Shown here: positions 1 to 64,000 of the stretch, piece after piece
Numbering within the stretch: the first letter of the stretch is position 1
Layout: every line of letters begins with the position of its first letter
DNA from: a virus
Virus record (IMG/VR): IMGVR_UViG_3300020183_000040
Span: 21,187-85,186 of that record
Length of the DNA stretch: 64,000 nt
Reading direction: 5' to 3' (one strand)
Translations under genes and position numbers: made by a program
The notes under the pieces: model-generated
The model's input: the letters and a program-made list of their open reading frames with translations, nothing else
Told to the model about the DNA's origin: nothing
Database searches by the model: none

Positions 1-3000
1 TCTCAATTTGGGTATATTATTGGAGAAACGTTCAACGTCGGAGCTACAGGATTTATTGGAATATTGGATAGTGCTGTCGTTATAAAGAACAGCACAAATG
101 CTAATGACTTCTTATATGAATTCTCTGAAACTATTACTACGCTTGAGGGAGAACTAGCACAAGTAGAACAGATCAACCTGTCAGTTGGTCAAGAAATTCC
201 TATTGCTAGACTAAGATATACTACTGGCGTATCAACAACTGCTATTGAGGTAATTGCATATAATACTTCTACCCCAACTAGAGTTCCTGACAATGTATTT
301 GTAATTGGCAAATATTATCAATTTGATGCTGAGGTTTTCAAAGTAACTGCAATAGTACATGCTACAGAATATTCAACTATAACTGTACAAAGAGCTCAAC
401 TAGGAACTGCTGCGGCACAACACCAAGCAAATGCTTCCATATATGGAACAGAAATCAATGTAACGGATAAACTAACTCTATCCAAAACAGTTGGAACATA
501 TCAATCAAAACCAGGTCTATTTGATATTCAACTATATGATATTATTGTTGGAGTTCAGTCTGGTTCTGTTGGATTTGTAACAAGGTCATATGCATACACA
601 GACCCAACTACCAACTTACCAATCAATGAGGTAGTTATTTCAGAAGGATCCTCATTCTTTGGACTTCTATTCAACAGAATTACTTCCACAGAATATGCGA
701 ATGTTATTCTTGATAATATTGCAGATTCTCAAATTCAAGTAAATGATTTTGAAACTGCACTAGTATCAATCGATTCTACTTTCCCAGTAGGAGAATTTGT
801 AAACAATCATGTTGTTGTCTACAATACTGCAACTGGAACAATCCAGAACAATGAGTATATTAGAAATTATAAATTTGACTATGGTAATGATACTGGTGTG
901 TTTACTGTTGGAGAAACCGCTGAAATTCGTCAGCTTGCAATAAGAAATAGAGAAGGTGGGTATTTTACTGATGGTCAAATCATCAGAAGTGAAAATTCTA
1001 AAGCAGAAGTTCTTGGATTTGCTCCAGGTAGAAATATTGTCTATCTCGGTAAACAGGCAAGAAGTTCTTCAGCAGGAAAGGATTTCCATATCCCAACATT
1101 TTTTGGGAATGCCAAACTATCTACAGCACAGAAAAAATTCGGAGAATCATCTCTACTTCTAGATGGAAATGGAGATTATCTACAAATATCGCACCCAACA
1201 GAATTTGATCTAACAACTTATACATTTGAAGCGTGGATTTATTTACCAACCACTCCAACTACTGAGTATTCGATGATATTTGCCAATGTCGGACAAAACT
1301 CGTATTGGGGACTCCGTACTGTTGCTGGAGTTACACGTCTGACTTCATATGATGGCAGTACCATCAATGAACAAACAACTGGAACTGGTATTCCATTGAA
1401 TACTTGGACTCATGTTGCTTGGTCTAGGTCTGGTAGTACTATTAGAGCGTTTATGAATGGAGTAATCGTACACACTGGAACTAGCAACGCCACTCCAAAT
1501 GTGACTGGAATTACAATTGGTTATTCAGATAGTTATGCAAATCAATATTTCTTCAATGGATATATCGATGAAGTAAGAGTATCTAATACAAACATTTATG
1601 GACTTGCATTTACTCCTCCTTCTAATATTTTCCAAGGAGATAATAATACAAAACTACTACTTCATTTTGATGGTGCTAATAATGCAACAACCACTGATGA
1701 TTGGTCTGGTGCAGCTAACTGGGCAAATGGGCAAGAATTTGTAAATAGTGGAATTCTATTCCGTTTTTATGATGCAGCAAATCAAATAGAAGATAATATA
1801 AATTTGATTGCTGCCGAAGCAGTATATCGTACAGATGTACATTTCCCCAAACTTCATATTCCAACAACAGTTGCTATCACTTATGGTAGTCAGTTCTATG
1901 ATGTAATTCTTGCAAATCTAAACTTCATTGCTTGGGAAGCATATCAAAGAGTTTCTCCAACTCCTCCAACTGGAACAACAGCACAGGATTGTGTTGATGA
2001 TGTAAAAGATGTTCTTCGTAGTTTAGCTTATAACATCAAACATGGATTCAATTCCAAAGTTTGGGATGCAGCAAAATTGTATGTAAACTCTGGTGCTATT
2101 CAACATCTAACTGGTCAAGTTACAAACTCTGTCAATGTATTCAATCAAGCGAGAAATATTGCAAAACAAATCATCAATAACACTACAGTAACCAAGCAAG
2201 GTTCTCATACTTATACACAAACAACAAATACTTCAATTCCATATGTTATTGGTGGATATACTACTGTTGAGAGCTCTATTGATTCTCTATTCAAGATTGT
2301 TACCGATACACTTCAAAATCCAGCTGGTACAAATAACACTACATATCCATCTTCTGTTGCTGTTCTTCCGAGAACACACCCACCACATACTCAGTGTATT
2401 GCTGATGTCACCCTCACTATCACTGAAATTCTAAAAGATATTAGAAATGGTGGTAATGAATATACCTGGGACGCAGCTTCTCTCTATGTCAACACTGGGG
2501 GATCCACAGCAACACTCAATCATATTGTTGGTGAAGAAGCAGAGACTTCATATGCATATGACAGAGCAAGAGATATTTCTCTACTTGTAATGCGTGGACT
2601 TGAGGTTGGTATTACTGGAGATCATGGTTTTACACAATTCATTGATACAACCATTACGGATGATCCTGCAAATCCAGTTTGTGCTGATGTTGCCAGTACA
2701 ATCAATACTTTATTCGATATTGTAATTGATACAATTGATCTTGCATATACTTCTTCTGGAAATCATCTACTAACAGTACCTAGAACACAGGCAGCGTATG
2801 AATATGCATCTGGAATAGTAGATGCATATAGATCCGACAGTTTTACAATTCGTTCTGTAAATAACACAACTAAAGACTTTTGGACTAATGAAATTAGTCC
2901 AGATACTCAGAGTCGTTACATAGATGCTGCAGATCTCATTGAAATCAATACTGAGGCTATTATTGATGAAACTTCGGGGAGGATGCTCGCTAGATATCCC

Positions 3001-6000
3001 GTACTCCTCACTGAGATGCCCCGTAACCAGGATGGAAGCGGTGCAGGTACAAATAGATGTAAAACTGATTTGACAATCCTTCTAGGCGCTCTAGTGAAGG
3101 ACCTTAGATTTGGAGGTAATCGTTTTACTACTGAGGCAACAAAAAATTACTTAGGTGTAAATGATGAAATTAGGCATATTCGTTTACAACTTTGGGGATC
3201 TTTGTATGCACATGATCAACTTGGTGAAATGTCAAAACTTGCAATCACTGGAGATCTAGCAGCTGTTGCACAATACACAGACTCTGTAATTGTATCTGAT
3301 ATTGGCATCACTCAGGATGCTGGCGGATGTGCTAATGTCAAGACAACGATTGACAATCTGATTCAAAATATGAATGACATTCTTGCTCCTACACCAGATA
3401 GGAATAAGGATGCTGCAGATCTACTCGTTTTCAATAGGAATTACATCGCAGAAGAAGCAATTGGTCTGCTTGAAGATGAATTCTTCTATACTCTAAGTAA
3501 TGGACAAACATATCAGGCATATCAATATCCTGGTGGTAATGTTGATGGAAGAAACAAGTGTATTAGAGATGCAAAAAATATCATAGATGCAGTTGCTGCT
3601 GACCTACTAACAGGTGGAAATAATAGCATTCTTCTTGCTGTAGAAAAATATTTGACTGCTCAACTTGAAATTGATTACATTGAAGATCAACTTGGTGCAA
3701 CTCTATATTCGTGGACTAGAATTGCCTTCCTATGCAAGAAAGCAGTTGCTAACTTACTTCAGTCTGCTAATCAAATTGCACTGTCTACAAGTCATTATGT
3801 TGCTCAACATACGGATAAAGCTGCATATACAGATCCAACGATTACTCATGATATTTCTTCTCCTGGTGGAAATTACAGTTCTGCAGACTGTGTAAATATT
3901 CAAGCTGCAATTGATAACCTAATAAATGCAGCTATTGACACTCTTGCCCCTGGTGGAGATATTGCTATAAATGCATCAAGAATGATGCTTTTCAATAAAA
4001 ACTATTTTGATAAGGAAATTGGTGAAGAAGTTACTAGACAATGGGGACAAATCACAACTGCTCAAAAAACATTTATTGAAGAAGTTGCTGATAATATCAT
4101 TCATGATATTCTAATCACTAAAGAAAGTGTACTTGATAATCAGACTACAGCGCAATATTCAAATGTTCAGACTTACAGAACCCTTAGAAGTTTACTCACA
4201 CCTCTAAACACGACTAATAATCAATTGAATTTGATCCCTGCAGCTCAGGTCGAACAAATTTCTGGAGGAACATGGACAAGCACTGGAAATACTGTATCTC
4301 TAAATGCATCTTCTGGTCCAGATGGAACTCTTACCGCAGATAAATTGATTCCTGGTACAACTGGCACAGATGAACGTGCTGTAAGAAGAAACTTTGTTTT
4401 GACTGCGTATACAACCTATGATAGAGACAATGTAACGTTTGATAATGAATATGTCACTCTTGATCAGGGTGTTGACACTTCATATCAAACATATACTTGG
4501 TCTATATTCTTCAAAGAAGCTGGTTACTCTAATGCAAGAATTAGAGTTCAATGGGATGCAACTCACTTTGCATTTTTCAATATAAATCTAACAAATGGAG
4601 CACCAAGTGATGTATTTGGAACTGGAATAACAGGACTGTCTACAGGAGTTATTCCACATGGAAATGGATGGTACAGGGCATTTATTACCTTTGATGTTCC
4701 ATTTGGTGTTTCATCAGTAGATCTATTTGCATATGGAACGGTGAATGCTTCAGTTACTGCTCCTGGTAATGGAACTAGCGGTGTTCTAATTTGGGGTGCT
4801 AAATTTGCTAAGAGTGGAATTGATATTTACACATCACAAGGAGGAACTCCTTTCTACCCAGATAATGATTATAATGTGAGAAATTATATTCTGGATAGAC
4901 TTGAATTCTTTATGACTAGAGCGATTTCGGGAACACTAATAACTCCATCTCCTCTAGCTACGTTCCCATCTTATACAAATACATCTATTCAATCTGGATA
5001 TACAATTGCGGATATCAATAAATTTATTGAGATACTAATCAATCAATACCAAGAACAACTCACAAACCCATCTTATTATCTTGTTATTGGTATTCAAAAT
5101 GGACTAGTACTTCTACCAAAAACTTATGGGACCAGAATAATCCCAGTTCCTTTGGGCGGAAAAATTGAACAATCTTCGTTTATCTATGGTGTTCTGTCTG
5201 ATAGAAGTGCAGAAATTGCAGGATATATTTTGAATGAAGCACAAGTTGCAAAAACTTATGTGAGGATGAGAATAAACGATATTGAGGATGGTCCATTTGT
5301 TGTCAACGACGACGTGGTTGCCGCTGGGAATCCAGGTATAACAGGAAAAATTTATGGATTCTACTCTGATGAAAACTTCAATTATCTTGATGTAGAAGTA
5401 ACTGCTGGAACATTCAATATCAACTCTCGTATTGAAAGTGATGAGGGTGCTGAAGCTACAATTGTTGCTATTGAACCTCGCCTTCACGTCATTGGACTTC
5501 AAGGTGATTTTGCTGATGGAGTTCCATTCAAAGCATATACAAGTAACGTTACTGCAAATGTTGTAGATTTTATTAGATGTGAAGGAGCAGTTTTGAGTAA
5601 TACTGGTGGAAAACTAACTGTAGATACAGATTCTTTGACTGGTTCTTTTGAAACCAAGAGCGTTGTATTCCCACAAACATCAAGAATTTACCTAGATCTT
5701 ATTCAATATAAAGGTCTTGTATTGAATGTCGGTGATATCATTGTTGCTGATGGTTATGTAAGATTCCAAGTTGCAGTAAACAATAATTTGTCAACTTTCC
5801 AAAGAGGTGGAACCTTATACGGAATTGTCAATGGCACTAAGGACACAAGTAGGAGAGCCATTATAGTAGATCTTGATCTCAACAATAATTACATATATGC
5901 TAAAACATATCTTGGACAATTTGCTAATGGTCAATCATTTGCTTATTACGGAGAGGTTGAGGGAGATCTTCCAGTTGGTTTTGCAACTATTGTAACCAAT

Positions 6001-7332
6001 GTACCTGTTGCTGGTAATGCATCTGGTAGGATAGTAGATATCAAGCAAGTAGGAACTAAAACAAGAGTGTTCTTGTCTGATGTAAGAGGAACCTGGACTA
6101 TTAGAGAGACCGTGGCTGGTAGGGCAGGATATGGTGCTGCAGTTTTTGATACTAAGACTATCAAAGGAAGAATCAAGCGTGCATTCCGTGGATTTGATGG
6201 CGTGCAAACGGAGTTCAACCTCACAACTGCCAATGGAACTCCATACTTCCCAGATCCAGATGGGCATATGTTGATCTTTATCAACGGTATTCTACAACCT
6301 CCAGGTGCAGGCAACGCTTATAGTGCATTCTCAAATGTACTTTCGTTTAGTGAACCACCTGAAGTTGGAGATGCATTTGTTGGATTCTATCTAGGAAAAC
6401 TACGCCAATTGGATGACATTTCCTTTGAATTTGATTCTCTACGTCAATCATTCAACCTGAGACGTTCTGGAATCTTCTATTCTCTAACTCTTACCGATGG
6501 TGTACAATCTTCCGTGATTAGACCAGAAAATAATATCATTGTTTCTCTAAATGGTGTTATTCAAGAACCTGGCATTGGATTTACTCTTGTTGGTTCTCGT
6601 ATTATCTTTGGTGAAATTCCTAGAGTAGGATCTACATTCGTTGCATTCTCTTATGTTGGTTCTGAAGGTGACGTTGACTCGGAAACTGTTGTTCCACCAA
6701 TTGAACCTGGTGATCTTCTAGATATTGAAGGTGAAACTATAGATCGTGAAGTTGCAGTTATTGAATCTTCTAATTCTTTGATTACAATTGATTATCTTGG
6801 ATCTGTGTTTGGTAAAGGCGCTAGTGCAACGGGAGTAATCACTAAAGGAAGAATCAAAGAATCCAGAGTTACATCTGGAGGATCTGGTTATACGTCTAGA
6901 CCACTTGTTAGAATTGACTCTGTTACTGGTTTTGATGCCAATATCAAAGCACTAGTTGGAGTAGAAAGAATTGAAATGATAACCTATGGAAGTGGATATA
7001 AATCTCCAGTGGTTCTTGTAGAATCGACAGTTCCCGATGATTGGACTTCACCAAATATTGCTCTATATGGAGCTGATGGAGTTGCAACAATTCAAGTAAT
7101 ACCTACTACACCTACAGAACCACCTCCAAGTGCAGGCGTTCCTGACAACACTATAAGTACTAGTGGTGGATTTACTGCTGGTGGTGGCGTGGTTGGACAA
7201 ACTACAGGTGGAACTGATACAGAGGGTGGCATATTTGATGGAGAGTTGGACTTCATATGGACTCGTCCAGCAAACTCATATACAACACCTAATTTCAATG
7301 TTGCAAATATATTTGCCAGCAGCACCAGCTAA
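1..7332 (+). CDS. Giant virion structural protein, probably gp7-like baseplate wedge initiator (5'-truncated), with a LamG/ConA-like domain and Cys-containing helical repeats
   Basis: Frame is open from base 1, so the gene starts upstream of the window. LamG motifs (FEAWIY, WTHVAWSR, NGYIDEVRVS) lie at ~1100-1680. Position upstream of gp8 matches cyanomyovirus synteny. Confidence 0.7.
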   Translation, partial: SQFGYIIGETFNVGATGFIGILDSAVVIKNSTNANDFLYEFSETITTLEGELAQVEQINLSVGQEIPIARLRYTTGVSTTAIEVIAYNTSTPTRVPDNVFVIGKYYQFDAEVFKVTAIVHATEYSTITVQRAQLGTAAAQHQANASIYGTEINVTDKLTLSKTVGTYQSKPGLFDIQLYDIIVGVQSGSVGFVTRSYAYTDPTTNLPINEVVISEGSSFFGLLFNRITSTEYANVILDNIADSQIQVNDFETALVSIDSTFPVGEFVNNHVVVYNTATGTIQNNEYIRNYKFDYGNDTGVFTVGETAEIRQLAIRNREGGYFTDGQIIRSENSKAEVLGFAPGRNIVYLGKQARSSSAGKDFHIPTFFGNAKLSTAQKKFGESSLLLDGNGDYLQISHPTEFDLTTYTFEAWIYLPTTPTTEYSMIFANVGQNSYWGLRTVAGVTRLTSYDGSTINEQTTGTGIPLNTWTHVAWSRSGSTIRAFMNGVIVHTGTSNATPNVTGITIGYSDSYANQYFFNGYIDEVRVSNTNIYGLAFTPPSNIFQGDNNTKLLLHFDGANNATTTDDWSGAANWANGQEFVNSGILFRFYDAANQIEDNINLIAAEAVYRTDVHFPKLHIPTTVAITYGSQFYDVILANLNFIAWEAYQRVSPTPPTGTTAQDCVDDVKDVLRSLAYNIKHGFNSKVWDAAKLYVNSGAIQHLTGQVTNSVNVFNQARNIAKQIINNTTVTKQGSHTYTQTTNTSIPYVIGGYTTVESSIDSLFKIVTDTLQNPAGTNNTTYPSSVAVLPRTHPPHTQCIADVTLTITEILKDIRNGGNEYTWDAASLYVNTGGSTATLNHIVGEEAETSYAYDRARDISLLVMRGLEVGITGDHGFTQFIDTTITDDPANPVCADVASTINTLFDIVIDTIDLAYTSSGNHLLTVPRTQAAYEYASGIVDAYRSDSFTIRSVNNTTKDFWTNEISPDTQSRYIDAADLIEINTEAIIDETSGRMLARYPVLLTEMPRNQDGSGAGTNRCKTDLTILLGALVKDLRFGGNRFTTEATKNYLGVNDEIRHIRLQLWGSLYAHDQLGEMSKLAITGDLAAVAQYTDSVIVSDIGITQDAGGCANVKTTIDNLIQNMNDILAPTPDRNKDAADLLVFNRNYIAEEAIGLLEDEFFYTLSNGQTYQAYQYPGGNVDGRNKCIRDAKNIIDAVAADLLTGGNNSILLAVEKYLTAQLEIDYIEDQLGATLYSWTRIAFLCKKAVANLLQSANQIALSTSHYVAQHTDKAAYTDPTITHDISSPGGNYSSADCVNIQAAIDNLINAAIDTLAPGGDIAINASRMMLFNKNYFDKEIGEEVTRQWGQITTAQKTFIEEVADNIIHDILITKESVLDNQTTAQYSNVQTYRTLRSLLTPLNTTNNQLNLIPAAQVEQISGGTWTSTGNTVSLNASSGPDGTLTADKLIPGTTGTDERAVRRNFVLTAYTTYDRDNVTFDNEYVTLDQGVDTSYQTYTWSIFFKEAGYSNARIRVQWDATHFAFFNINLTNGAPSDVFGTGITGLSTGVIPHGNGWYRAFITFDVPFGVSSVDLFAYGTVNASVTAPGNGTSGVLIWGAKFAKSGIDIYTSQGGTPFYPDNDYNVRNYILDRLEFFMTRAISGTLITPSPLATFPSYTNTSIQSGYTIADINKFIEILINQYQEQLTNPSYYLVIGIQNGLVLLPKTYGTRIIPVPLGGKIEQSSFIYGVLSDRSAEIAGYILNEAQVAKTYVRMRINDIEDGPFVVNDDVVAAGNPGITGKIYGFYSDENFNYLDVEVTAGTFNINSRIESDEGAEATIVAIEPRLHVIGLQGDFADGVPFKAYTSNVTANVVDFIRCEGAVLSNTGGKLTVDTDSLTGSFETKSVVFPQTSRIYLDLIQYKGLVLNVGDIIVADGYVRFQVAVNNNLSTFQRGGTLYGIVNGTKDTSRRAIIVDLDLNNNYIYAKTYLGQFANGQSFAYYGEVEGDLPVGFATIVTNVPVAGNASGRIVDIKQVGTKTRVFLSDVRGTWTIRETVAGRAGYGAAVFDTKTIKGRIKRAFRGFDGVQTEFNLTTANGTPYFPDPDGHMLIFINGILQPPGAGNAYSAFSNVLSFSEPPEVGDAFVGFYLGKLRQLDDISFEFDSLRQSFNLRRSGIFYSLTLTDGVQSSVIRPENNIIVSLNGVIQEPGIGFTLVGSRIIFGEIPRVGSTFVAFSYVGSEGDVDSETVVPPIEPGDLLDIEGETIDREVAVIESSNSLITIDYLGSVFGKGASATGVITKGRIKESRVTSGGSGYTSRPLVRIDSVTGFDANIKALVGVERIEMITYGSGYKSPVVLVESTVPDDWTSPNIALYGADGVATIQVIPTTPTEPPPSAGVPDNTISTSGGFTAGGGVVGQTTGGTDTEGGIFDGELDFIWTRPANSYTTPNFNVANIFASSTS

Positions 7333-7355
7333 ATAATCAGGGAAATTCGATACAA

Positions 7356-8309: not shown

Positions 8310-8312
8310 ACT

Positions 8313-32214: not shown

Positions 32215-32490
32215 ATGTCAAGAAGAATTATTGTGCAAAATAGTGAGGTAACTCTCAGTACAGCTACTAATCTAAGTAAGGCAAGATTGGTAAGAGTGTT
32301 GAACGATACCGCTGCAAGCATTGTTCTAACGATTGATGATGCTGCACAGGCAGCTGCTAGAGAAGATTACGATACAAAAGGTTCTAGAACTATTACAGTT
32401 GGATCACTAGAAACTATCTATCTTGAGAAAGAACCATTGGAAACTATCAGTGGTTCTGGACTAAAATGTACAGCAATTGCAAGACAATGA
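32215..32490 (+). CDS. Hypothetical protein, possibly virion-associated
   Basis: Clean ORF directly after gp16; AATAAATA late-promoter-like site at ~32182. Confidence 0.7.
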   Translation: MSRRIIVQNSEVTLSTATNLSKARLVRVLNDTAASIVLTIDDAAQAAAREDYDTKGSRTITVGSLETIYLEKEPLETISGSGLKCTAIARQ

Positions 32491-33788
32491 AAACATTTTC
32501 CGAGTTTATGGCAGAGGGTAATCCTACCGCTCGTATGCTTCACAAATCAAAAACTCAAGTCACAGGGCACATCTCTGCCGATCGTGGCGATGATGAAAGT
32601 GCAAATCGTACAAAGCGCAAATCACTTGAGAAAGATCTAAAGAAGCATGGTATTGGGCATCAGAAGGGTGTAGGTGAATACAAATATTCTTCTGGTGAGG
32701 GCACTGGTAGAGAGGTTTCCTATCAAACATCTAAACCAGATAAAATGTCTAAGCGTAGATTTGGAAAGGTAATGCGTCGTCTTGGTCGTAAGCATGGTCA
32801 AGAATCTGTTATCACAAAAGATTCCAACAAACCTGCTAAACTACATTATACTGATAAAGGATCTAAATCAACATCTGACACTATTGGTCATAGTAAATCA
32901 GGTAAGCACCCAGAAGGATATGGGGAAACTTCGGGCACTAAAGTTCGTGGTTCTAAACTTCCTAAGAAAACCACTAAGTCTGCTTATCACTACGAAGAAT
33001 TTGTTGAAGAGGGATTGAGAAAAAGACTTGCTGCTGGTGCATTAGCTGCCGCAGCTGCAGTTGGATCTGGCGGTGCGGCAAAAGCAGGTCATCATCATGG
33101 TGAGGTTCATGTTCGTCATGGTTCTACTCCTGCAACTGCCACTCATCATTCTGTAGCAAGTGCAGTTGATAAGGCACTTGCAAATAAAGATAGTAGTGGT
33201 GGAAAGGAGTTTCATTCTGCATCTCATGAGAAGGGCAAAACTGGAACAACTGTTCATGGAAAGTATGAGTATTCTGCTTCTGGCGGTTCAGATAATAAAA
33301 AAGCAACAGAGGCTCCTAAACCAAAACGAGGAGAAGATTCTCGTAAACGTGGTAAGCATGATCCGTCAAGGGGGTCAGCGCCAGCAGTTCGTTCTACAAC
33401 ACATAGTCCTGAGCGAGATCGAGCTCAGCATGGTGATCGGGGCAATGGCAATGGTCATCGGAGCAATGGTAGTGGCGGTGACCGTGGCGGCGGATCAACT
33501 TACCGTATGAGCAGTTATATTCCTTCCTTTGGAGACTTCATGTCGGAAGGAGAAGCTTGGACTAGAAAGGAGGGTCAGAATAAAAATGGTGGTCTCAACG
33601 CAGCAGGTCGCGCATCTTACGAAAGAGCAAATCCTGGATCTGATCTCAAGGCACCTTCAAAGAAGGTTGGAAATCCCCGCAGGGCGTCATTCTGTGCCAG
33701 AATGAAAGGAATGCGTAAAAGACAAAAGGATAGTAACAACACTGGCGAGGACCGTCTATCGAAATCGCTTCGTGCGTGGAATTGTTGA
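32487..33788 (+). CDS. Putative internal head polyprotein: SAM-lyase-like module, His/Gly-rich module and DUF6321-like module
   Basis: Start revised to ATG 32487 (ATGA overlap). MKTFSEFMAE resembles the T4 capsid-targeting sequence; internal YEEFVEE and FGDFMSE; GxY/ExS/QESVI motifs; C-terminal RRASFCARM...RAWNC. Confidence 0.7.
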   Translation: MKTFSEFMAEGNPTARMLHKSKTQVTGHISADRGDDESANRTKRKSLEKDLKKHGIGHQKGVGEYKYSSGEGTGREVSYQTSKPDKMSKRRFGKVMRRLGRKHGQESVITKDSNKPAKLHYTDKGSKSTSDTIGHSKSGKHPEGYGETSGTKVRGSKLPKKTTKSAYHYEEFVEEGLRKRLAAGALAAAAAVGSGGAAKAGHHHGEVHVRHGSTPATATHHSVASAVDKALANKDSSGGKEFHSASHEKGKTGTTVHGKYEYSASGGSDNKKATEAPKPKRGEDSRKRGKHDPSRGSAPAVRSTTHSPERDRAQHGDRGNGNGHRSNGSGGDRGGGSTYRMSSYIPSFGDFMSEGEAWTRKEGQNKNGGLNAAGRASYERANPGSDLKAPSKKVGNPRRASFCARMKGMRKRQKDSNNTGEDRLSKSLRAWNC

Positions 33789-35167: not shown

Positions 35168-35322
35168 TGAATTATATTGCATTCTTGGTTATTGGATTGG
35201 TAGAAATCGGTCCTAATGTATGTAAAGTTGATTACATGCGTTATGTTGATGTGCAATCCTTTACGATGCCTTGCGATCATATTCAAAAAATTACAAAAGC
35301 TCCAGTGGATAGATCGATATGA
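35167..35322 (+). CDS. 51-aa hypothetical protein (not in ORF track)
   Basis: TAATG coupling upstream and ATGA coupling downstream; MNYIAFLVIGLVEIGPNVCKVDY... Confidence 0.6.
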   Translation: MNYIAFLVIGLVEIGPNVCKVDYMRYVDVQSFTMPCDHIQKITKAPVDRSI

Positions 35323-35723
35323 AAGACCCCTATATCTACAGAATCCGTTCAATTGCAAAGGTGGTAGATGGCGACACTATTGACGCTAACATTGATCTCG
35401 GTTTTGATATCTCTCTCAATAAGCGAATTCGCCTTGCGGGCATTGACACGCCTGAGAGCAGGACAAAAGACGAATACGAAAAGAAACTCGGACTCGAATC
35501 GAAAGAGTGGTTGAAGAAGCATCTGGAGGGATCTAAAGATATTCTTATCAAGACTGAACTTCCAGATAGCACAGAGAAGTATGGTCGTATCATCGGACAC
35601 TTGTATATCAACGGTGAAGAAATATCAGTCAATAATAAAATGATCAACGAAGGATACGCCTGGGAATATGACGGTGGTACAAAACAAAAAGATTTTTGGT
35701 CTCTTCTAAGTAAAAGAAAGTGA
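35319..35723 (+). CDS. Thermonuclease (staphylococcal nuclease-like)
   Basis: KVVDGDTID, RIRLAGIDTPE, EKYGRIIG and MINEGYAWEY SNase motifs. Confidence 0.9.
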   Translation: MKDPYIYRIRSIAKVVDGDTIDANIDLGFDISLNKRIRLAGIDTPESRTKDEYEKKLGLESKEWLKKHLEGSKDILIKTELPDSTEKYGRIIGHLYINGEEISVNNKMINEGYAWEYDGGTKQKDFWSLLSKRK

Positions 35724-53187: not shown

Positions 53188-53275
53188 GGAGAGGTGGCCG
53201 AGTGGTTTATGGCAGCAGTCTTGAAAACTGCCGATGTGAAAGCATCCGTTGGTTCGAATCCTACCCTCTCCGCCA
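53188..53275 (+). tRNA. trnS: tRNA-Ser(TGA)
   Basis: GGAGAGG/CCTCTCC acceptor stem, GCAGT-CTTGAAA-ACTGC anticodon arm, long variable arm, GTTCGAATC, encoded CCA. Confidence 0.95.
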
Positions 53276-56947: not shown

Positions 56948-56975
56948 TGGTCAGTTAGCCAACTGGACTTGACTC

Positions 56976-57004
56976 TTGCCATTTACGATTCCTAGTGCTA
57001 TAAT
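56976..57004 (+). promoter_or_regulatory. sigma70-type promoter for cobS
   Basis: TTGCCA-17nt-TATAAT with extended TG; GAGG RBS downstream. Confidence 0.75.
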
Positions 57005-57030
57005 AACAAGGTACACAAAGAGGACACACG

Positions 57031-58116
57031 ATGCCTAAACCTAGCGTAAGCACCGAGCAACTGGTTCAGACTTTGACCGATAGCTTTGGTAAAACAGTAA
57101 ATGCTAAACAGGTGCAAACAGTTGCTGATCAACTTGGCATCACTTATATTACTGCGTCTAGAAAACTTGATCAGTTCAAGGAAGGTCGTGGTAAATGGAA
57201 TCTTACCACTCAAGAAGTACGGCAACAACTTGAAACAATAATTTCATCATTTGTTCCATCATCTGATAGTAACTTTGTTCCTTTCGGTAACTTCAGTGAC
57301 ATCAAAAAAATTATTCGCAGTAAACAGTTCTATCCAATTTTTATTACTGGACTATCTGGAAATGGAAAAACTGTTGGTGTTGAACAAGCATGTGCTCAAC
57401 TACAACGTGATTTGATTCGTGTAAACATTACGATTGAGACTGATGAAGATGACCTTATTGGCGGTTTCCGCCTTGTTGATGGTGCCACTGTTTGGCACAA
57501 TGGTCCAGTTATTGAAGCCCTCGAACGAGGGGCGGTCTTGTTACTTGACGAGATTGACCTTGCCTCCAACAAAATCCTTTGTCTACAATCCGTGCTAGAA
57601 GGTAAAGGAGTCTTCTTGAAGAAGATCGGTCGTTATGTTCAACCTGCGCCTGGATTCACAGTAGTTGCCACTGCTAACACCAAAGGTAAAGGTTCTGACG
57701 ATGGACGCTTCATCGGCACTAACGTGTTGAACGAAGCATTCCTTGAGAGGTTCCCAATCACACTTGAGCAGGACTATCCTACTGCTAATATCGAAACTAA
57801 AATTCTTACCAACTATGGTTGCGATACTGAGTTTGCTGATAATCTAGTGAAGTGGGCAGGCGTTATCCGCAAGACTTTCTTTGATGGTGGTGTTGATGAA
57901 GTTATTAGCACTCGTCGTCTTGTGCATATTGTTGAAGCGTACAATATCTTTGGTGATCGACTCAAAGCAATTCAAGTTTGCGTGAATCGATTTGATGAAG
58001 ATACTAAGCAATCCTTTGTCGAACTCTACACCAAGGTTGATTCTGGTGAAGATCCCGATGATGACGAATCTCCAGAAGAGATGGTGCGGCGTCATGCTAT
58101 GGAATCGATCTCTTGA
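57031..58116 (+). CDS. cobS: CobS/MoxR-like AAA+ ATPase
   Basis: GLSGNGKT Walker A, LLLDEID Walker B, ATANTKGKG, NEAFLERF and ISTRRL motifs. Confidence 0.9.
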   Translation: MPKPSVSTEQLVQTLTDSFGKTVNAKQVQTVADQLGITYITASRKLDQFKEGRGKWNLTTQEVRQQLETIISSFVPSSDSNFVPFGNFSDIKKIIRSKQFYPIFITGLSGNGKTVGVEQACAQLQRDLIRVNITIETDEDDLIGGFRLVDGATVWHNGPVIEALERGAVLLLDEIDLASNKILCLQSVLEGKGVFLKKIGRYVQPAPGFTVVATANTKGKGSDDGRFIGTNVLNEAFLERFPITLEQDYPTANIETKILTNYGCDTEFADNLVKWAGVIRKTFFDGGVDEVISTRRLVHIVEAYNIFGDRLKAIQVCVNRFDEDTKQSFVELYTKVDSGEDPDDDESPEEMVRRHAMESIS

Positions 58117-58141
58117 CATATCAAACTGAAATCTCTATAAT
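58113..58141 (+). promoter_or_regulatory. Perfect sigma70 consensus promoter
   Basis: TTGACA-17nt-TATAAT upstream of the clamp/clamp-loader operon. Confidence 0.85.
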
Positions 58142-58165
58142 AGAAGAACAACTCTATCTTTCATT

Positions 58166-58453
58166 ATGAACTTGAAGTACAACGAAGACGTAATTCTTGA
58201 CGAATTACGTCAATACATTATGAACACTTACACCCAACACTATTCTGTTGGCGATGATAAGATTCAAACTCTAGATTTGATTGAGGCATGTGGTGACGGC
58301 GAAGCTTTTTGCCGTAGTAATATCTTGAAGTATGCTTCACGATATGATAAAAAAGGTAGCGCCCGCATGGACATTATGAAAGTGCTACATTATGCAGTTC
58401 TTCTGCTAAACTTCAATGACAAAAATGCCACCCGTGACAATTACAACCAATGA
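58166..58453 (+). CDS. Conserved hypothetical protein (DUF3310-like)
   Basis: TYTQHYS, FCRSNILKYASRYDKKG and DIMKVLHYA motifs. Confidence 0.8.
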   Translation: MNLKYNEDVILDELRQYIMNTYTQHYSVGDDKIQTLDLIEACGDGEAFCRSNILKYASRYDKKGSARMDIMKVLHYAVLLLNFNDKNATRDNYNQ

Positions 58454-59106
58454 CAGTATTGACTACTACCACACATAAAATCCTCAAGAACTTTGCTTCG
58501 ATCAATAACTCTATTGTGATCAAACCTGGAAGCACTATTGGCACATTGAGTGTGAATAAAAACATTCTTGCTGTTGCAGATGTAGAAGAAAAATTTGAAA
58601 AGCAAATTTCAATCTACGATCTTAGTCAGTTCCTGCATGGATTCTCATTCTTCAATGTTCCTGAGGTTGTGACTGATAATGAAAGTTATGTAACTGTAAC
58701 TGAGCATGGAAACGATACAAAAAAAGTGCGTTTCTATTATGCAGATCCTGATATTATCGTACAACCCCCAGATAAAACGATTGTACTTCCTTCCGTAGAC
58801 GTGTCTTTCACCATCTCTGAAAGTAATCTGACAGAGTTGCGTAGGGCAGCGTATGTATTTGGTCTTCCTGATATTTGTGTGTATGGTGATAAAAAAATGA
58901 TCACTATCTGCACAACTGATAAGAAGAACGATACCTCACATACCTATACCTTTGAACTTGGACCTACAACTAAAGAGTTTTGCTACTGCCTCAAAGTTGA
59001 AAATCTTAGAATTCTAAATCAAGATTATAAGGTTAGCATCAGCAATTCGAATGTAGCATACTTTGATGGTGGCAATGTCCGTTATTGGATCGCTCTAGAA
59101 CCATGA
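58450..59106 (+). CDS. gp45: DNA polymerase sliding clamp gp45
   Basis: ILKNFASINNSI, IYDLSQFL, KVENL and YWIALE motifs. Confidence 0.93.
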   Translation: MTVLTTTTHKILKNFASINNSIVIKPGSTIGTLSVNKNILAVADVEEKFEKQISIYDLSQFLHGFSFFNVPEVVTDNESYVTVTEHGNDTKKVRFYYADPDIIVQPPDKTIVLPSVDVSFTISESNLTELRRAAYVFGLPDICVYGDKKMITICTTDKKNDTSHTYTFELGPTTKEFCYCLKVENLRILNQDYKVSISNSNVAYFDGGNVRYWIALEP

Positions 59107-59654
59107 ATAACTTTGAATTCTATGGATATGATTTCATACCAGGAATTCTAACTCCTAAAGATGCTGCAAATCTTCACCAAGATTTACAGCAACAAGAGTT
59201 CGATAAAGAACCACCAGAGTACGATCCTGGTAGAGGTCTAGTCAAGATGGTTTACAAACCAAAATGTGCTGAAGATATATTCGATCAAGTACATCATTTA
59301 CTAGAAACGTACCTGAGTACTGCTCTATATCCTACCTACTGGTTTTGTACTCAATATTACAACAAGTCTTACATGGCAGCACATAAAGATCGTGGGGCAT
59401 GTGAGGTATCCATAAGCATGAATATCTCACAAGATGGTTTACCATGGGACTTGTGTTTACGTGATAAAACTGGTAGAATTATTCGTCGCAAAACAAATCC
59501 TGGCGACGGGGTTCTATATGCTGGTACAGAAGTAACACATTGGAGAACTCCATATCAAGGGCGAATCTACACTCAACTATTCCTTCATTATGTCAAAAAA
59601 AATGGAAAATACTCAGACTTCAAATACGACGAGCTCAAGTCCTCCCCTAACTAG
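59103..59654 (+). CDS. 2OG-Fe(II) oxygenase-like protein
   Basis: LYPTYWF, HKD (HxD), CEVSIS, GDGVLY, HWR and QLFLHYV motifs. Confidence 0.8.
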   Translation: MNNFEFYGYDFIPGILTPKDAANLHQDLQQQEFDKEPPEYDPGRGLVKMVYKPKCAEDIFDQVHHLLETYLSTALYPTYWFCTQYYNKSYMAAHKDRGACEVSISMNISQDGLPWDLCLRDKTGRIIRRKTNPGDGVLYAGTEVTHWRTPYQGRIYTQLFLHYVKKNGKYSDFKYDELKSSPN

Positions 59655-60192
59655 ACCCATTGTACAGGGAGGTGTTCTTCAAACTAGTCGTGAATGTGGT
59701 ACTTGTAAAGAATGTTGTGGAGGATGGTTGTGGGGCGAAGCGCATGGCATCCCATTCTTTCCCAATCACCCATGTCATTATCTAGATCCTAATCCTGGTC
59801 GCTGTGGTGGATGTACTATTTACGAAGATCGTCCTGCAATATGTAGAGATTTTCAGTGCCTTTGGCTTCAAGATTTACAAATGCCTGGATGGATGAAACC
59901 TGAATTCTCTAAAGTTATTATGTACCAACGTACATATGAAGATGTTGAAGGTGAGGTCCATGAACCTGGTTGGAGCATCACCTGGGTCTCTATGGTAGAA
60001 TGTGGTGAAACTGTCGATCCTACAGTGTTGAATTGGGTTATTACCCAGGCACGAACACAAGAATTCAATTTGCATTACCAAGTAAAGAAGACTGATTACT
60101 ATATGGGTAGTCCAGTATTCCAAGACTTTGCACGTACTTACGGTCTGCAAAGTAAAACGACTGTTGTTGTACATGAGGAAGAACATGCATGA
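59590..60192 (+). CDS. YkgJ-like Cys-cluster (CxxCxxCC) Fe-S/zinc protein
   Basis: RECGTCKECC...C...CTIYEDRPAICRDFQCLW; start may be 59602. Confidence 0.75.
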   Translation: MSKKMENTQTSNTTSSSPPLTRPIVQGGVLQTSRECGTCKECCGGWLWGEAHGIPFFPNHPCHYLDPNPGRCGGCTIYEDRPAICRDFQCLWLQDLQMPGWMKPEFSKVIMYQRTYEDVEGEVHEPGWSITWVSMVECGETVDPTVLNWVITQARTQEFNLHYQVKKTDYYMGSPVFQDFARTYGLQSKTTVVVHEEEHA

Positions 60193-61126
60193 TTTTCTTT
60201 GGGTTGAAAAATATCGTCCACAGTCAGTTGAAGATTGTATCCTACCTGAAGAAATCAAATCTATCTTTACTGGATTCTTGAAGCAGGGAGAGATACCTAA
60301 TCTTCTTCTAGCTGGAACTGCTGGTGTTGGTAAGACTACTATTGCTAAGGCACTTTGCCAAGAACTTGATGTAGACTACATGGTCATCAACGGATCTGAT
60401 GAGGGTCGTTTTCTAGAAACTGTTAGGAATCAAGCAAAGGCATTCGCATCAACCGTCTCATTGACCTCTAGCAGTCGCCACAAGGTGCTTATCATCGATG
60501 AGGCAGATAACACTACTCATGATGTTCAACTCCTTCTGAGGGCATCTATCGAGGAGTTTCAGCGTAACTGTCGATTTATCTTTACCTGTAACTACAAAAA
60601 CAAAATTATTGATCCTCTTCATTCTCGTACTACAGTCGTTGATTTCAATGTAACTGGAAAACAGAAGGTTGATATTGCACAGCAATTTTTACTACGCTGT
60701 TGTGACATCCTTTCGCTTGAGCATGTCGAGTATGAACGTAAGGTTGTCGCTGAACTTATTATGAAGTTCTTTCCAGACTTCAGGCGTGTGCTCAATGAGT
60801 TACAAAGATATTCATCTACAGGTAAAATTGATACTGGAATCATTGCAGTATGCGGAGATGAAAGTTATGCTGCCCTCACAGATGCTTTGAAAGGTAAAAA
60901 CTTTACTCAGGTGAAGAAGTGGGTTGACCAAAATATTGATAACTCACCTACCTTGATTATGCGAGGTATTTACGAGCGACTATATACAATGCTTGATAAA
61001 AAAAGTATTGCTGCCGCAGTGCTAATTATTGCTGAGTATCAGTATAAGTCTGCATTTGTTGCTGACCAGGAAGTCAATCTTCTTGCGTTTCTTACTCAAA
61101 TTATGTTAGAGTGTGAATTCTTATGA
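60185..61126 (+). CDS. gp44: Clamp loader large subunit gp44
   Basis: WVEKYRP, GTAGVGKTT, IIDEAD, FIFTCN and FPDFRR motifs; start revised to ATG 60185. Confidence 0.96.
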   Translation: MHDFLWVEKYRPQSVEDCILPEEIKSIFTGFLKQGEIPNLLLAGTAGVGKTTIAKALCQELDVDYMVINGSDEGRFLETVRNQAKAFASTVSLTSSSRHKVLIIDEADNTTHDVQLLLRASIEEFQRNCRFIFTCNYKNKIIDPLHSRTTVVDFNVTGKQKVDIAQQFLLRCCDILSLEHVEYERKVVAELIMKFFPDFRRVLNELQRYSSTGKIDTGIIAVCGDESYAALTDALKGKNFTQVKKWVDQNIDNSPTLIMRGIYERLYTMLDKKSIAAAVLIIAEYQYKSAFVADQEVNLLAFLTQIMLECEFL

Positions 61127-62022
61127 ACCTAAAAACACCCCTCAGATATCCTGGAGGTAAATCTCGTGCTACCGTAAAACTAGCACAGTTCCTTCCAGAT
61201 ATGGAAAAGATTACTTACTATAGAGAACCATTCCTTGGAGGTGGATCTGTTGCACTTTACATGACACAGAGGTATCCACATCTACAAGTATGGGTAAACG
61301 ATCTATATTTACCCCTATGTGTTTTTTGGACGGTCCTTCGTGATAATTCAAAGGATCTTCATCGTATTCTAAAGGAGTACAAAACTCTACATGATACTCC
61401 AGAATCTGCCAGAGAACTTTTCAATCAGATGAAAGTTGCTATAGATAATCCTAAGTTAGGTGAGTTGGATATAGCTGTAGCATTTTATGTAATCAACAAG
61501 TGTAGTTTTTCTGGACTTACTGAAAGTTCCTCATTCAGTGCTCAAGCATCTAATTCAAATTTTAGTATGCGTGGAATTGATAACATACCAGAATATTCTA
61601 AAATAATTCAAAACTGGAAGATTACAAATTATAGTTATACTCGGGTAATGGGTAATGGTCAAGACATTCTAATTTATCTGGACCCACCATATGAAATCAA
61701 AGACAAGTTGTATGGCAAGTCTGGCAACATGCACTCAGGATTCAATCATGACAAATTTGCAGGTATCTGCCAAGAACATGTAGAAGCAACTAAGATGCTG
61801 GTATCATATAACTCAAGTCAATTGATTCGGGAACGATTTGCTGGCAAATGGTCTCCCTATGAATATGACCACACATATACTATGAGATCTGTTGGAGACT
61901 ACATGGCAGATCAAAAAAATCGTAAAGAACTTGCTCTTATAAATTATGACATCAGACCAGAACTACCAACTAAAGGATTATCTAAAAACAATAAATCAAA
62001 CAAAACAAAATCTGATGCGTGA
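61123..62022 (+). CDS. dam: DNA adenine methyltransferase (Dam/D12 class)
   Basis: TPLRYPGGKS, EPFLGGGSV, WVND and LDPPY motifs. Confidence 0.9.
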   Translation: MNLKTPLRYPGGKSRATVKLAQFLPDMEKITYYREPFLGGGSVALYMTQRYPHLQVWVNDLYLPLCVFWTVLRDNSKDLHRILKEYKTLHDTPESARELFNQMKVAIDNPKLGELDIAVAFYVINKCSFSGLTESSSFSAQASNSNFSMRGIDNIPEYSKIIQNWKITNYSYTRVMGNGQDILIYLDPPYEIKDKLYGKSGNMHSGFNHDKFAGICQEHVEATKMLVSYNSSQLIRERFAGKWSPYEYDHTYTMRSVGDYMADQKNRKELALINYDIRPELPTKGLSKNNKSNKTKSDA

Positions 62023-63840: not shown

Positions 63841-63846
63841 ATTTTT

Positions 63847-64000
63847 ATGTATAAATCCGCAATCGCAGCTGTCGCAGCTGCTCCTTTCCTTGCCACCGCT
63901 GCGTTCGCTGGCCCTTATGTAGAATCGAAAACCACTGCTGGTCTTTCTGATGGCACTTACAAAGGTGCTCAAACCGAACTTCGTGTTGGTTACGAAGAGA
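63847..64000 (+). CDS. Secreted or outer-membrane beta-barrel-like protein, 3'-truncated (not in ORF track)
   Basis: MYKSAIAAVAAAPFLATAAFA|GPYVESK...ELRVGYE; signal peptide with an AFA cleavage site; GAGG RBS. Confidence 0.7.
   Translation, partial: MYKSAIAAVAAAPFLATAAFAGPYVESKTTAGLSDGTYKGAQTELRVGYEE

Follow-up and report, generated by a model that had tools for sequence, protein, structure and literature searches.

The DNA of this freshwater cyanobacterial virus contains no TTAA, and its marine relatives, which belong to the same clade of T4-like cyanomyoviruses (Kyanoviridae), are likewise almost completely free of this word, with 2 occurrences in 413,514 nt over five lineages, this one included. 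The sites have been removed by silent codon changes and in non-coding DNA alike. We speculate, with about even confidence, that viruses of this lineage carry their own small DNA-cutting enzyme without a protective methylase, and that they stay safe only because their genomes offer it nothing to cut. The gene in question was found in two relatives and lies outside the contig studied here, so that its presence in this phage, as well as its nuclease activity, is inferred.

TTAA is absent from the window and from the whole contig

A first-pass annotation of the 64,000-nt stretch analysed here (the window), made from the sequence alone, had claimed that TTAA is totally avoided in spite of the AT-rich composition. 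This observation is confirmed. We found 0 matches on both strands of the window, while 100 dinucleotide-preserving shuffles gave 439±17.5 and a second-order Markov model expects 245. The complete contig of 85,186 nt, of which the window is part, also has 0 TTAA, against 765 expected from base composition and 324 expected by the Markov model. As a codon-shuffled control had been named in advance as the test that could explain the depletion away, we shuffled synonymous codons within 71 crudely called genes 200 times, obtaining 395±12.6 TTAA (minimum 363) against 0 observed. The 3,408 nt of intergenic DNA should hold about 32 sites and hold 0.

In order to understand how the word is avoided without changing the proteins, we analyzed codon choice with respect to the following codon. 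Codons ending in TT are never used before AAx codons: in this position Phe TTT is 0 of 115 (717 of 1,053 elsewhere), Ile ATT 0 of 192, Val GTT 0 of 202 and Leu CTT 0 of 228. Leu TTA is used 0 of 630 times when the next codon starts with A and 169 of 1,316 times otherwise. Stop codons behave consistently with this, as 0 of 32 TAA stops follow a T while 10 of 33 TGA stops do. Neighbouring words are common in the window, as the annotation had stated (AATT 563, TATA 323, ATAT 518, TTGA 566, CTAA 376).

We also observed a feature that the annotation had missed, namely that CCGG is 0 (71±7.7 expected), while GGCC, AGCC, GGCT and AGCT are 2- to 5-fold depleted. Both fully absent words are short palindromes of the kind read by type II enzymes, and the depletion of longer words is explained by these 4-mer cores.

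TTAA absence follows a phage clade

The closest cultured relatives of the contig are the Ahtivirus isolates S-ShM2, S-SSM2 and S-RIM14. The marine phage S-ShM2 has 0 TTAA in 179,563 nt, and the total of 2 TTAA in 413,514 nt was obtained with the contig studied here (G000), the contigs G001 and L002, S-ShM2 and the clade member G006, which share only ~70-77% pairwise DNA identity. In a gp23 tree the clade is supported by an SH-aLRT of 96, and its sister clade has normal TTAA. In G000 alone, 6,804 single substitutions would create a TTAA, of which 1,067 are synonymous and 270 intergenic, and none is fixed in the five lineages.

The first-pass annotation had attributed the pattern to strong, long-term selection by a host system recognising TTAA (an MseI-type nuclease or an unknown defence), against which the phage Dam does not protect and which may fingerprint the host. 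This interpretation is partly supported. Strong, long-term selection by something that reads TTAA, and that is not covered by the D12 (Dam-type) methylase of the phage, agrees with our data. GATC is not avoided (404 observed against 381±12 shuffled). That the agent is a host system, and that the trait fingerprints the host, is not supported. Three other myoviruses isolated on the host of S-ShM2, Synechococcus WH8102, carry 106 (S-SSM5), 143 (S-TIM4) and 114 (S-H25) TTAA per 25 kb, and S-H25 has no beta-class methylase match; for this isolation host, as distinct from the lake host, a restriction-modification (R-M) system of this specificity does not account for the avoidance. The trait also persists from marine isolates to a lake phage, while other avoided words (RGCY, TTCGAA) relax in the lake member, and it co-occurs with a phage-encoded nuclease-like gene family. 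Nevertheless, a host origin of the pressure is not excluded.

A nuclease-like gene family co-occurs with loss of TTAA or TCGA

These observations prompted us to ask whether a phage gene could be involved. By comparing loci, we found that both clade members whose early region is known, S-ShM2 and G006, encode a solitary ~165-aa protein, gp059 in S-ShM2, with a D-x8-E-x-K motif just downstream of an early-region helicase. Among 38 helicase-region loci of at least 5 kb, a family member occurs in 2, and those 2 are the only TTAA-purged ones (Fisher p=0.0014). Of 68 deduplicated loci carrying a family member, 29 have TTAA or TCGA below 5% of expectation, against 4 of 60 gp23 control loci (p=2e-6), although related loci share ancestry and these tests overstate independence. 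The association is also found in independent genetic backgrounds: G008 (0 TTAA against 321 expected) and G007 (2 against 120) carry homologs but do not avoid CCGG, and L151 has 1 TTAA against 207.

A paralogous subfamily shows a similar association with another word. S-SSM4 has a solitary 31%-identical homolog and 0 TCGA against 85 expected, with normal TTAA, and of 13 distinct loci with a solitary distant homolog, 9 have 0 TCGA and 2 have at most 2 TTAA. In P-SSM7, the homolog is followed by two methylase genes in an R-M-like arrangement, and TTAA is normal (165 against 229). In contrast, no methylase gene lies within 3.5 kb in the S-ShM2-type and G006 loci, and the whole S-ShM2 genome has no beta-class methylase by PF01555 match, nor was a methylase remnant found there; the family thus includes both paired and solitary forms. 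The contrast predicted between these forms is however weak, as 14 of 24 solitary copies against 15 of 44 methylase-linked copies are in purged loci (p=0.07), and many methylase-linked loci are still TCGA-poor.

At the sequence level, D69, E78 and K80 are invariant in 33 of 33 aligned members, with H68, R70 and I79 nearly so, and the depositors of the S-BM3 genome annotate its 80%-identical homolog as 'restriction endonuclease'. Beyond this motif, profile searches revealed no significant match to any named nuclease family or solved structure: only sub-threshold hits were obtained, to Mrr_cat in 2 of 33 members (best E=0.027), PDDEXK_15 in 1 and YraN in 1, and a PDB profile search gave nothing significant.

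Several results do not fit a simple relationship. Close homologs with an intact motif coexist with residual TTAA in S-BM3 (13 against 109), in G010 (37 against 639) and in the loci L160-162 (about one third of expectation), which a strict unprotected TTAA cutter should not tolerate unless its specificity is narrower there. In L160-162, however, ATTAAT is 21 against 25 expected but CTTAAA is 3 against 34, a sparing that depends on flanking bases and differs between variants of the putative nuclease, and that speaks for its involvement. The TTAA-poor contigs G003 and G005 show no family member in the parts sequenced. The S-ShM2 and G006 copies are only 35% identical to each other, so the locus may have been replaced, and a shared specificity is assumed. 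Finally, the gene was found neither in the 85,186-nt contig nor in G001 or L002, which do not cover the early region. The contig begins at the equivalent of S-ShM2 ~52.7 kb, while the gene lies at 47.0-47.5 kb in S-ShM2, about 5 kb beyond the contig end, and attempts to extend the contig did not succeed.

A phage-encoded nuclease as the proposed cause

Based on these results, we consider as the most likely cause, although no more than an even proposition, a small restriction-type nuclease of the PD-(D/E)XK kind, carried by the phage itself, that would read TTAA and have no partner methylase. Such a phage could not protect its DNA by methylation, and any TTAA that arises would be cut and lost, so that synonymous codon choice and non-coding sequence would be held at zero sites, while host DNA, or the DNA of a rival phage, carries TTAA and could be cut. 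Our analysis shows the total and actively maintained absence of TTAA, its restriction to a phage clade and not to a host, the co-occurrence of this gene family with complete loss of TTAA or, in a paralogous subfamily, TCGA, the invariant motif, and the R-M-like arrangement with methylase genes in some relatives. We infer that the protein is a nuclease and that it cuts TTAA, the latter only from co-occurrence, that it is the cause of the site-free state and not merely tolerated because of it, and that the lake phage carries the gene, on the basis of two relatives only. Causality could indeed run the other way, as a genome already made site-free by host restriction can accept a solitary nuclease.

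A broader reading, which we hold as somewhat less likely than not, is that T4-like cyanophages, and some unrelated phages, carry an uncharacterised family of small restriction-type nucleases that work without a methylase, with 4-bp palindromic specificities differing between subfamilies (TTAA, TCGA and variants sensitive to flanking bases), used against host or rival-phage DNA, the carrier being immune because its own genome has been purged of the target. In this view, the site-free state, once established, would be enforced by the enzyme of the phage itself and would therefore survive host switches, including the move from sea to lake, and it would also let nuclease cassettes of the same specificity be exchanged at one locus. 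If so, the absence of a genomic word would predict the specificity of an unknown enzyme family.

Alternative explanations

Host restriction, as proposed by the first-pass annotation, remains possible but appears unlikely. In this case natural hosts of the clade would carry an MseI-type enzyme or another TTAA-reading defence, every TTAA would lower the chance of a successful infection, and the phage gene would be unrelated or acquired only because the genome was already site-free. Consistent with this, the avoided words are short palindromes (TTAA, CCGG, GGCC) or near-palindromic sets (RGCY) and the avoidance is synonymous, which are the classic marks of restriction-site avoidance. Other lineages of the same phage family avoid other palindromes, such as GATC in L017, L063, L039 and S-H25. 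The graded depletion in G005 (46 against 234) and G003 (61 against 306), without a nuclease homolog in the parts sequenced, fits variable exposure better than a lethal self-nuclease, and the differences in RGCY and TTCGAA between marine and lake members indicate that some pressures do follow habitat. Against this reading are the TTAA-containing phages of WH8102, the persistence of the zero-TTAA state across habitats and about 30% DNA divergence, and its tracking of a phage gene family also in CCGG-containing backgrounds. No TTAA-specific R-M or methylation in cyanobacteria was found in a literature search, which was incomplete and not accompanied by host genomes.

Still less likely is warfare between phages, in which the selective agent would be a TTAA nuclease carried by co-infecting relatives, and phages often sharing cells with carriers would lose TTAA whether or not they encode the enzyme. 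The family is indeed common (213 IMG/VR stretches and 747 proteins at E<=0.001) and often comes with methylase genes, as mobile R-M cassettes do, and the partial depletion in contigs without a detected copy (G003, G005) and in carriers with residual sites fits a strong but not absolute pressure. However, 0 of 36 helicase loci without the gene are purged, so exposure alone seems not to drive sites to zero, and co-occurring phages of the same host keep their TTAA.

An artefact of sequencing, base-calling or assembly at a modified motif, or chance, considered because total absence of a 4-mer is extreme, found no support and is refuted for practical purposes, since 20 freshwater or lake runs hold 94-98% of the sampled words, Logan contigs from 4 runs tile window positions 40000-59999 with 0-2 differences each, four further lineages from other samples, including an isolate genome, share the trait, the changes are cleanly synonymous and depend on the following codon, and every shuffle gave at least 363 sites.

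Relation to known systems

Avoidance of short palindromes is known in virulent phages (surveyed by Rusinov et al. 2018, PMC6286503). Staphylococcus phage K, for example, lacks GATC. As in those cases, a 4-bp palindrome is eliminated genome-wide by silent changes while related words stay common, and different lineages purge different palindromes. The usual explanation is a host R-M system, whereas here phages of the same host strain keep the site and the trait follows a phage lineage and a phage gene family. A term search of the main text of PMC6286503 found neither 'cyanophage', 'Synechococcus' nor 'TTAA'.

With orthodox type IIP R-M systems reading a 4-bp AT palindrome (MseI/Tru9I class, TTAA), the family shares the presumed target, the small size, a D-x8-E-x-K motif and, in relatives such as P-SSM7, a position directly beside methylase genes. 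It differs in the lack of an adjacent methylase in S-ShM2 and G006, and no sequence similarity to any named restriction-enzyme family was detectable. Chloroviruses encode R-M systems (for example CviJI, which reads RGCY), and T4 degrades host DNA while protecting its own by base modification. In these viruses, as proposed here, a lytic virus carries a site-specific or class-specific nuclease that can destroy host DNA while its own DNA is immune. Their protection is chemical, by methylation or hydroxymethylcytosine, while here it would be informational, because the genome contains no target at all.

Features of the window

Three further genes of the window were considered as the TTAA agent and rejected, and a gene with a weak S-adenosylmethionine-lyase-like domain may represent a separate counter-measure (Table 1).

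Table 1. Coordinates of features in the 64,000-nt window.
Position	Strand	Feature	Basis
1..64000	.	Stretch wholly free of TTAA and CCGG, part of an 85,186-nt contig with the same property; GGCC, AGCC, GGCT and AGCT depleted	Word counts, dinucleotide and synonymous-codon shuffles, context-dependent codon choice
32466..33788	+	440-aa protein with a weak S-adenosylmethionine-lyase-like domain (aa 36-143) and a DUF6321 domain; may be a counter-measure against SAM-dependent restriction, not the cause of TTAA loss	Pfam PF23780, E=3.8e-7, 30.6 bits against a cut-off of 28; PF19846, E=4.6e-21
35319..35723	+	Staphylococcal-nuclease-like protein (134 aa) upstream of the large terminase; rejected as the TTAA agent	Pfam PF00565, E=4.6e-17; homologs in the TTAA-containing phages S-SSM5, S-TIM4 and S-H25
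53188..53275	+	tRNA-Ser (anticodon tga)	ARAGORN; string check
59085..59654	+	189-aa 'ferrochelatase-like' ORF (phrog_2954); rejected as the TTAA agent	PHROG hit; placed by a protein atlas with viral 'ferrochelatase family' and 2OG-oxygenase-like clusters; no Pfam hit
59590..60192	+	g64, Cys-rich 200-aa protein of unknown function (phrog_9155) between gp45 and gp44; rejected as the TTAA agent	No Pfam hit; PHROG hit; conserved Cys pattern; homologs in the TTAA-containing phages S-IOM18 and Syn30
61123..62022	+	D12-class N6-adenine DNA methyltransferase (Dam-type, assigned from sequence), intact at 299 aa, between the clamp-loader gene gp44 and regA	Pfam PF02086, E=6e-28; syntenic with 'dam' of S-ShM2; GATC not avoided

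The first-pass annotation had also stated that the D-loop of the tRNA-Ser reads GGTTTATGGC rather than the more usual GGTTTAAGGC. The D-loop does read GGTTTATGGC, at 53204, and since neither form occurs in the 246 loci retrieved, these loci speak neither for nor against GGTTTAAGGC being the more usual one.

Total absence of TTAA and its basis in codon choice

We first asked whether the absence of TTAA claimed by the first-pass annotation could be confirmed by counting. TTAA does not occur in the 64,000-nt window on either strand, whereas dinucleotide-preserving shuffles give 439±17.5 occurrences and a second-order Markov model gives 245. The whole 85,186-nt viral contig to which the window belongs (here named G000) also has 0 TTAA, against 765 expected from base composition and 324 by Markov. 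The observation therefore held, and is indeed stronger than originally stated. We then performed the control that the first-pass annotation had asked for, a shuffling of synonymous codons within 71 genes, repeated 200 times, which gives 395±12.6 TTAA (minimum 363) against 0 observed. Genes were called crudely for this purpose (longest ORFs of at least 50 aa, chosen greedily), but the figure is conservative because the codon usage being shuffled is itself shaped by the avoidance. The 3,408 nt of intergenic DNA should hold about 32 TTAA and hold none.

The rerouting of codons is exact. Before AAx codons, Phe is encoded by TTC in 115 of 115 cases, although TTT makes up 717 of 1,053 Phe codons elsewhere, and ATT, GTT and CTT are likewise never used before AAx (0 of 192, 0 of 202 and 0 of 228, respectively). 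TTA is never followed by a codon starting with A (0 of 630, against 169 of 1,316 otherwise), and none of the 32 TAA stops follows a T, while 10 of 33 TGA stops do. The D-loop string of the tRNA-Ser is as the first-pass annotation had given it; as for its claim that another form is more usual, neither variant occurs in the 246 loci that we retrieved. Two features had escaped that annotation: CCGG is also wholly absent (71±7.7 expected), and GGCC, AGCC, GGCT and AGCT, which together make up RGCY, are 2- to 5-fold depleted.

In order to exclude an artefact, we searched public sequencing runs. Twenty runs labelled lake-water or freshwater metagenome hold 94-98% of the words sampled from a 10-kb interval of the window, and Logan contigs of four of them, one from a different year and study, tile a 20-kb interval with 0-2 differences per piece. 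This comparison showed identity across runs but no usable population variants to test whether new mutations ever create a TTAA. The clean synonymous pattern also rules out base-calling error at a modified motif. Summed contig depth is 10- to 100-fold higher over gp23, the tRNA cluster and a few conserved genes, where many variant contigs map, so that many related cyanomyoviruses coexist in these lakes alongside the near-clonal strain.

Coordinates of the features and intervals discussed in the text
Sequence	Position	Feature
Window	1-64000 (21187-85186 of the contig)	Stretch free of TTAA and CCGG
Window	35319-35723	SNase-like gene
Window	40000-49999	Interval sampled for words in public runs
Window	40000-59999	Interval tiled by Logan contigs
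Window	43900-45700 and 53200-53900	Intervals of raised summed contig depth
Window	53354-53447	tRNA-Ile (anticodon tat), 94 nt
Window	59085-59654	'Ferrochelatase-like' ORF
Window	59590-60192	g64
S-ShM2	about 52.7 to 141 kb	Interval syntenic with the contig
S-ShM2	47039-47536	SShM2_059 (gp059), ~165-aa ORF after the early-region helicase
G003 (L084-L086)	1-13089	TTAA-richer part (53 of 61 sites)
G003 (L084-L086)	13090-42133	TTAA-poorer part (8 of 61 sites)
L099 (S-IOM18)	10495-12480	g64 family beside methylase and putative nuclease genes
L100 (Syn30)	10545-12534	g64 family beside methylase and putative nuclease genes
L099 (S-IOM18)	~5000-17500 of the locus	Early-gene region of low TTAA density

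The trait belongs to a clade of T4-like cyanomyoviruses

The gene content of the contig is that of a T4-like cyanomyovirus (Kyanoviridae), with the structural genes gp23, gp25, gp6 and gp20, the replication and repair genes UvsY, UvsW, gp46/47, gp45 and gp44, a D12 (Dam-type) methylase, RegA and Hsp20. The closest cultured relatives by major capsid protein (88%) are S-ShM2, S-SSM2 and S-RIM14, genus Ahtivirus, isolated on marine Synechococcus WH8102, and the contig is syntenic with S-ShM2 over a long interval.

Among 80 IMG/VR loci around gp23, TTAA is 0 only in the two closest relatives, L001 and L002, and is near zero or reduced in a few distant ones (L022, L079, L053 and L068), while the next-closest clade has normal counts. 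On a gp23 tree the TTAA-free clade has an SH-aLRT of 96, and the TTAA-low state needs at least 3 changes. This tree comes from a quick IQ-TREE search on G000 plus 79 of the 80 loci, one locus having been dropped because its match was shorter than 400 aa. The record behind L001 (G001) has 0 TTAA in 59,324 nt, and the complete genome of S-ShM2 has 0 in 179,563 nt (together with 1 CCGG), its conspecifics S-SSM2 and S-RIM14 having 0 in 24 kb each. The further clade member G006 (71,013 nt) has 2, both in the last 240 nt. In total, G000, G001, L002, S-ShM2 and G006 comprise 413,514 nt with 2 TTAA, yet they are only 70-77% identical in DNA. In G000 alone 6,804 single substitutions would create a TTAA, of which 1,067 are synonymous and 270 intergenic; at this divergence, such changes must have arisen and been removed many times.

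The avoidance does not follow the host strain

We next tested the proposal of the first-pass annotation that the avoidance may fingerprint the host. Three other myoviruses isolated on the same strain, WH8102, carry 106 (S-SSM5), 143 (S-TIM4) and 114 (S-H25) TTAA per 25 kb, and the proposal thus fails its most direct test. S-SSM5 and S-TIM4 encode a beta-class methylase that might protect them, but none was found in S-H25. CCGG is 0 in all three, so that CCGG loss is a family-wide trait and is not specific to this clade. The clade spans marine isolates and a lake phage, and other avoided words relax in the lake member: AGCT is 162 against 296 expected in G000 and 102 against 654 in S-ShM2, while TTCGAA, which is 0 in S-ShM2 (Markov expectation 40, counting both strands) and in G001 (expectation 20), occurs 18 times over both strands in G000, an avoidance lost in the lake lineage. 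Some pressures therefore changed with habitat, while TTAA and CCGG stayed at or near zero.

Candidate agents carried by the phage

We then looked for an agent that travels with the phage, and several candidates were ruled out. The g64 gene looked lineage-specific and sits near the Dam gene, but homologs occur in 38 phage records, including the TTAA-containing S-IOM18 and Syn30. Its product is Cys-rich, and a CxxCxxCC-type pattern such as it carries marks a metal-binding family. A word-index homolog search for g64 gave only 5 proteins. The g64 family sits next to DNA methylase genes and putative nuclease genes in S-IOM18 and Syn30, and one gene away from the Dam gene in G000 and S-ShM2; ORF 032 of S-IOM18 has a weak MvaI/BcnI hit (E=0.04). 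The 'ferrochelatase-like' ORF has no nuclease features, and PDB sequence searches with this ORF and with g64 gave nothing informative. The SNase-like gene is shared with TTAA-containing phages. The HNH genes SShM2_142 and SShM2_145 occur only in the S-ShM2 species and are absent from G000 and L002 at the syntenic interval. The Syn30 'endonuclease' beside a D12-like methylase has no homolog in S-ShM2, G000 or G001. The 166-aa ORF after the beta-class methylase of S-SSM5 and S-TIM4 (T4-GC 66) is absent from S-ShM2, occurs in 141 records including Vibrio phages, and is present without a methylase in the TTAA-containing ACG-2014f (59 TTAA in 24 kb). The block SShM2_051-053 is also present in the TTAA-normal locus L140. 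Ten larger S-ShM2 genes, chosen from the gene-cluster numbers in the annotation on the assumption that these mark lineage-specific genes, have no nuclease-like Pfam or PHROG hits apart from the HNH gene. Finally, an apparently partial beta-class methylase in the TTAA-poor contig G003 proved to be full length (PF01555, E=1e-49), with no nuclease beside it; it is an orphan gene between the peptidase and cobS genes, and the D12 methylase homolog of the same contig contains an in-frame TGA.

We then compared 41 IMG/VR loci around the early-region helicase with S-ShM2. A ~165-aa ORF directly after the helicase (SShM2_059, T4-GC 685, phrog_6927, no Pfam hit) is present in S-ShM2 and in L107/G006, the two TTAA-free sets that cover the position, and in none of the TTAA-containing loci. 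With a family-wide tblastn, 2 of 38 loci of at least 5 kb carry a member, and they are the only 2 purged ones (Fisher p=0.0014). Among cultured phages the gene occurs in 24 records.

Homologs of SShM2_059 in cultured phages, with gene context and site counts (observed against expected)
Phage	Identity to SShM2_059	Gene context	Counts
Ahtivirus isolates (12 records)	98-100%	solitary	TTAA 0
S-BM3	80%; annotated 'restriction endonuclease' by its depositors	solitary	TTAA 13 against 109
P-SSM7	31%	followed by two methylase genes	TTAA 165 against 229
S-SSM4	31%	solitary	TTAA normal; TCGA 0 against 85

A family of putative nucleases associated with site loss

In an alignment of 33 members, D69, E78 and K80 are invariant within an H-D-R…E-I-K block, which we recognise as the PD-(D/E)XK nuclease signature. 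No named family or solved structure matches significantly, and the 120 best of 747 homologs carry no functional name and no Pfam domain. The family profile retrieved 80 IMG/VR loci, of which 68 remained once loci under 5 kb had been dropped and near-duplicates removed by a rough key (TTAA count, TCGA count and length bin). Of these 68 loci, 29 have TTAA or TCGA below 5% of expectation, against 4 of 60 gp23 loci (p=2e-6), although the loci are related, so that these p-values overstate independence. Homologs in genomes that do not avoid CCGG, and so lie outside the usual cyanomyovirus pattern, also coincide with TTAA loss, with 0 against 321 expected in G008 and 2 against 120 in G007; the homolog-bearing locus L151 has 1 against 207.

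A paralogous subfamily (L205, L219-L230 and L148, the last being S-SSM4) coincides with complete loss of TCGA. Of 13 distinct loci with a solitary distant homolog, counted by eye, 9 have 0 TCGA, 2 have at most 2 TTAA and 2 have neither. The contrast between solitary and methylase-linked copies is nevertheless weak (14 of 24 against 15 of 44 purged; p=0.07), and many loci with an adjacent methylase are TCGA-poor too. Here, an adjacent methylase means a tblastn hit at E<=1e-6 to one of 7 methylase queries within 3.5 kb, by which other methylase types would be missed. In lineages whose putative nuclease is 72-75% identical to that of S-ShM2 (L160-L162, L158 and G009), the surviving TTAA sites are mostly ATTAAN: ATTAAT is at a normal frequency, while CTTAAA, CTTAAC and GTTAAC are at about 10% of expectation. 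In L160-162, ATTAAT is 21 against 25 expected and CTTAAA is 3 against 34. This is the kind of neighbour-dependent sparing expected from a sequence-reading protein whose specificity drifts.

Interpretation

The first-pass annotation is partly supported in its interpretation: our data support long-term selection by a TTAA-reading agent, but not its assignment to a host or its use as a host fingerprint. With moderate confidence, we favour a methylase-free phage nuclease, with self-protection by absence of the site. The loss of TTAA, its maintenance across the clade and its association with the gene family are shown by the counts, whereas nuclease activity and cleavage at TTAA are inferred from the motif and from co-occurrence, and for this particular phage the reading is inferred from two clade relatives. 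Indeed, the gene is not on this contig, nor on G001 or L002, none of which reaches the early region; upstream of G000, one metagenome contig (L152) adds only 189 nt and is a diverged variant, and IMG/VR gave no match. The S-ShM2 and G006 copies share only 35% identity, close homologs with an intact motif coexist with 3-35% of the expected TTAA, and the TTAA-poor contigs G003 and G005 show no copy in the parts sequenced. Causality could also run either way, as a genome already site-free because of host restriction could accept a solitary nuclease, which would then lock the state in. Host restriction as the agent remains possible but doubtful, nucleases of co-infecting phages are unlikely, and an artefact is all but excluded.

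Complete loss of a 4-letter word from genomes of up to 180 kb is among the strongest sequence-level selection signals seen in viruses, and it occurs here in a cultured model cyanophage, S-ShM2, so that it can be tested at the bench. We found no paper describing TTAA or CCGG avoidance in cyanophages, in a literature search that covered few subscription journals and no supplements and included a term search in PMC6286503; the TTAA mentions in the OMEGA review (PMC13565253) concern transposon targets, and the EcoSal R-M review (PMC12707154) has no cyanophage or TTAA content. If the agent is a methylase-free phage nuclease, it would be a new way to tell self from non-self, by information content and not by chemical marking. 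It would also be a candidate answer to how cyanophages, which lack the modified cytosine of T4, destroy host DNA without harming their own, and a source of new 4-bp restriction specificities that can be read from genome statistics. The finding also warns against using word avoidance to infer hosts of uncultured phages, because here the signal follows the phage and not the host.

Other avoided words and minor observations

CCGG is 0 or nearly 0 in most T4-like cyanophage sequences examined, whatever their TTAA status, including S-SSM5, S-TIM4, S-H25, S-IOM18, Syn30, P-SSM7, S-SSM4 and most of the 80 gp23 loci. ACG-2014f (17 against 52 expected) is an exception, and no agent was identified for this family-wide purge. 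The four RGCY words are depleted together in the window and in the loci L099, L100 and L090-L093 (S-ShM2), and are almost absent in S-IOM18 and Syn30 (AGCT 5 against 89 and 3 against 88, respectively). RGCY is the site of chlorovirus CviJI, but no agent was identified here. Some cyanomyovirus lineages (L017, L039, L063, L062, L115, L116 and L096, the last being S-H25) avoid GATC instead, for example with 0 against 37 in L063, 1 against 40 in L017, 18 against 91 in S-H25 and 6 against 78 in L115.

The distribution of TTAA can also vary within a genome. G003 is mosaic, as 53 of its 61 sites lie in the first 13 kb and only 8 in the remaining 29 kb, suggesting either a recent recombinant or a chimeric assembly. 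In S-IOM18, TTAA density dips to 3-6 per 2.5 kb in the early-gene region, against 12-17 in the flanks. Finally, ARAGORN calls a tRNA-Ile in the window that is unusually long for a class-I tRNA.
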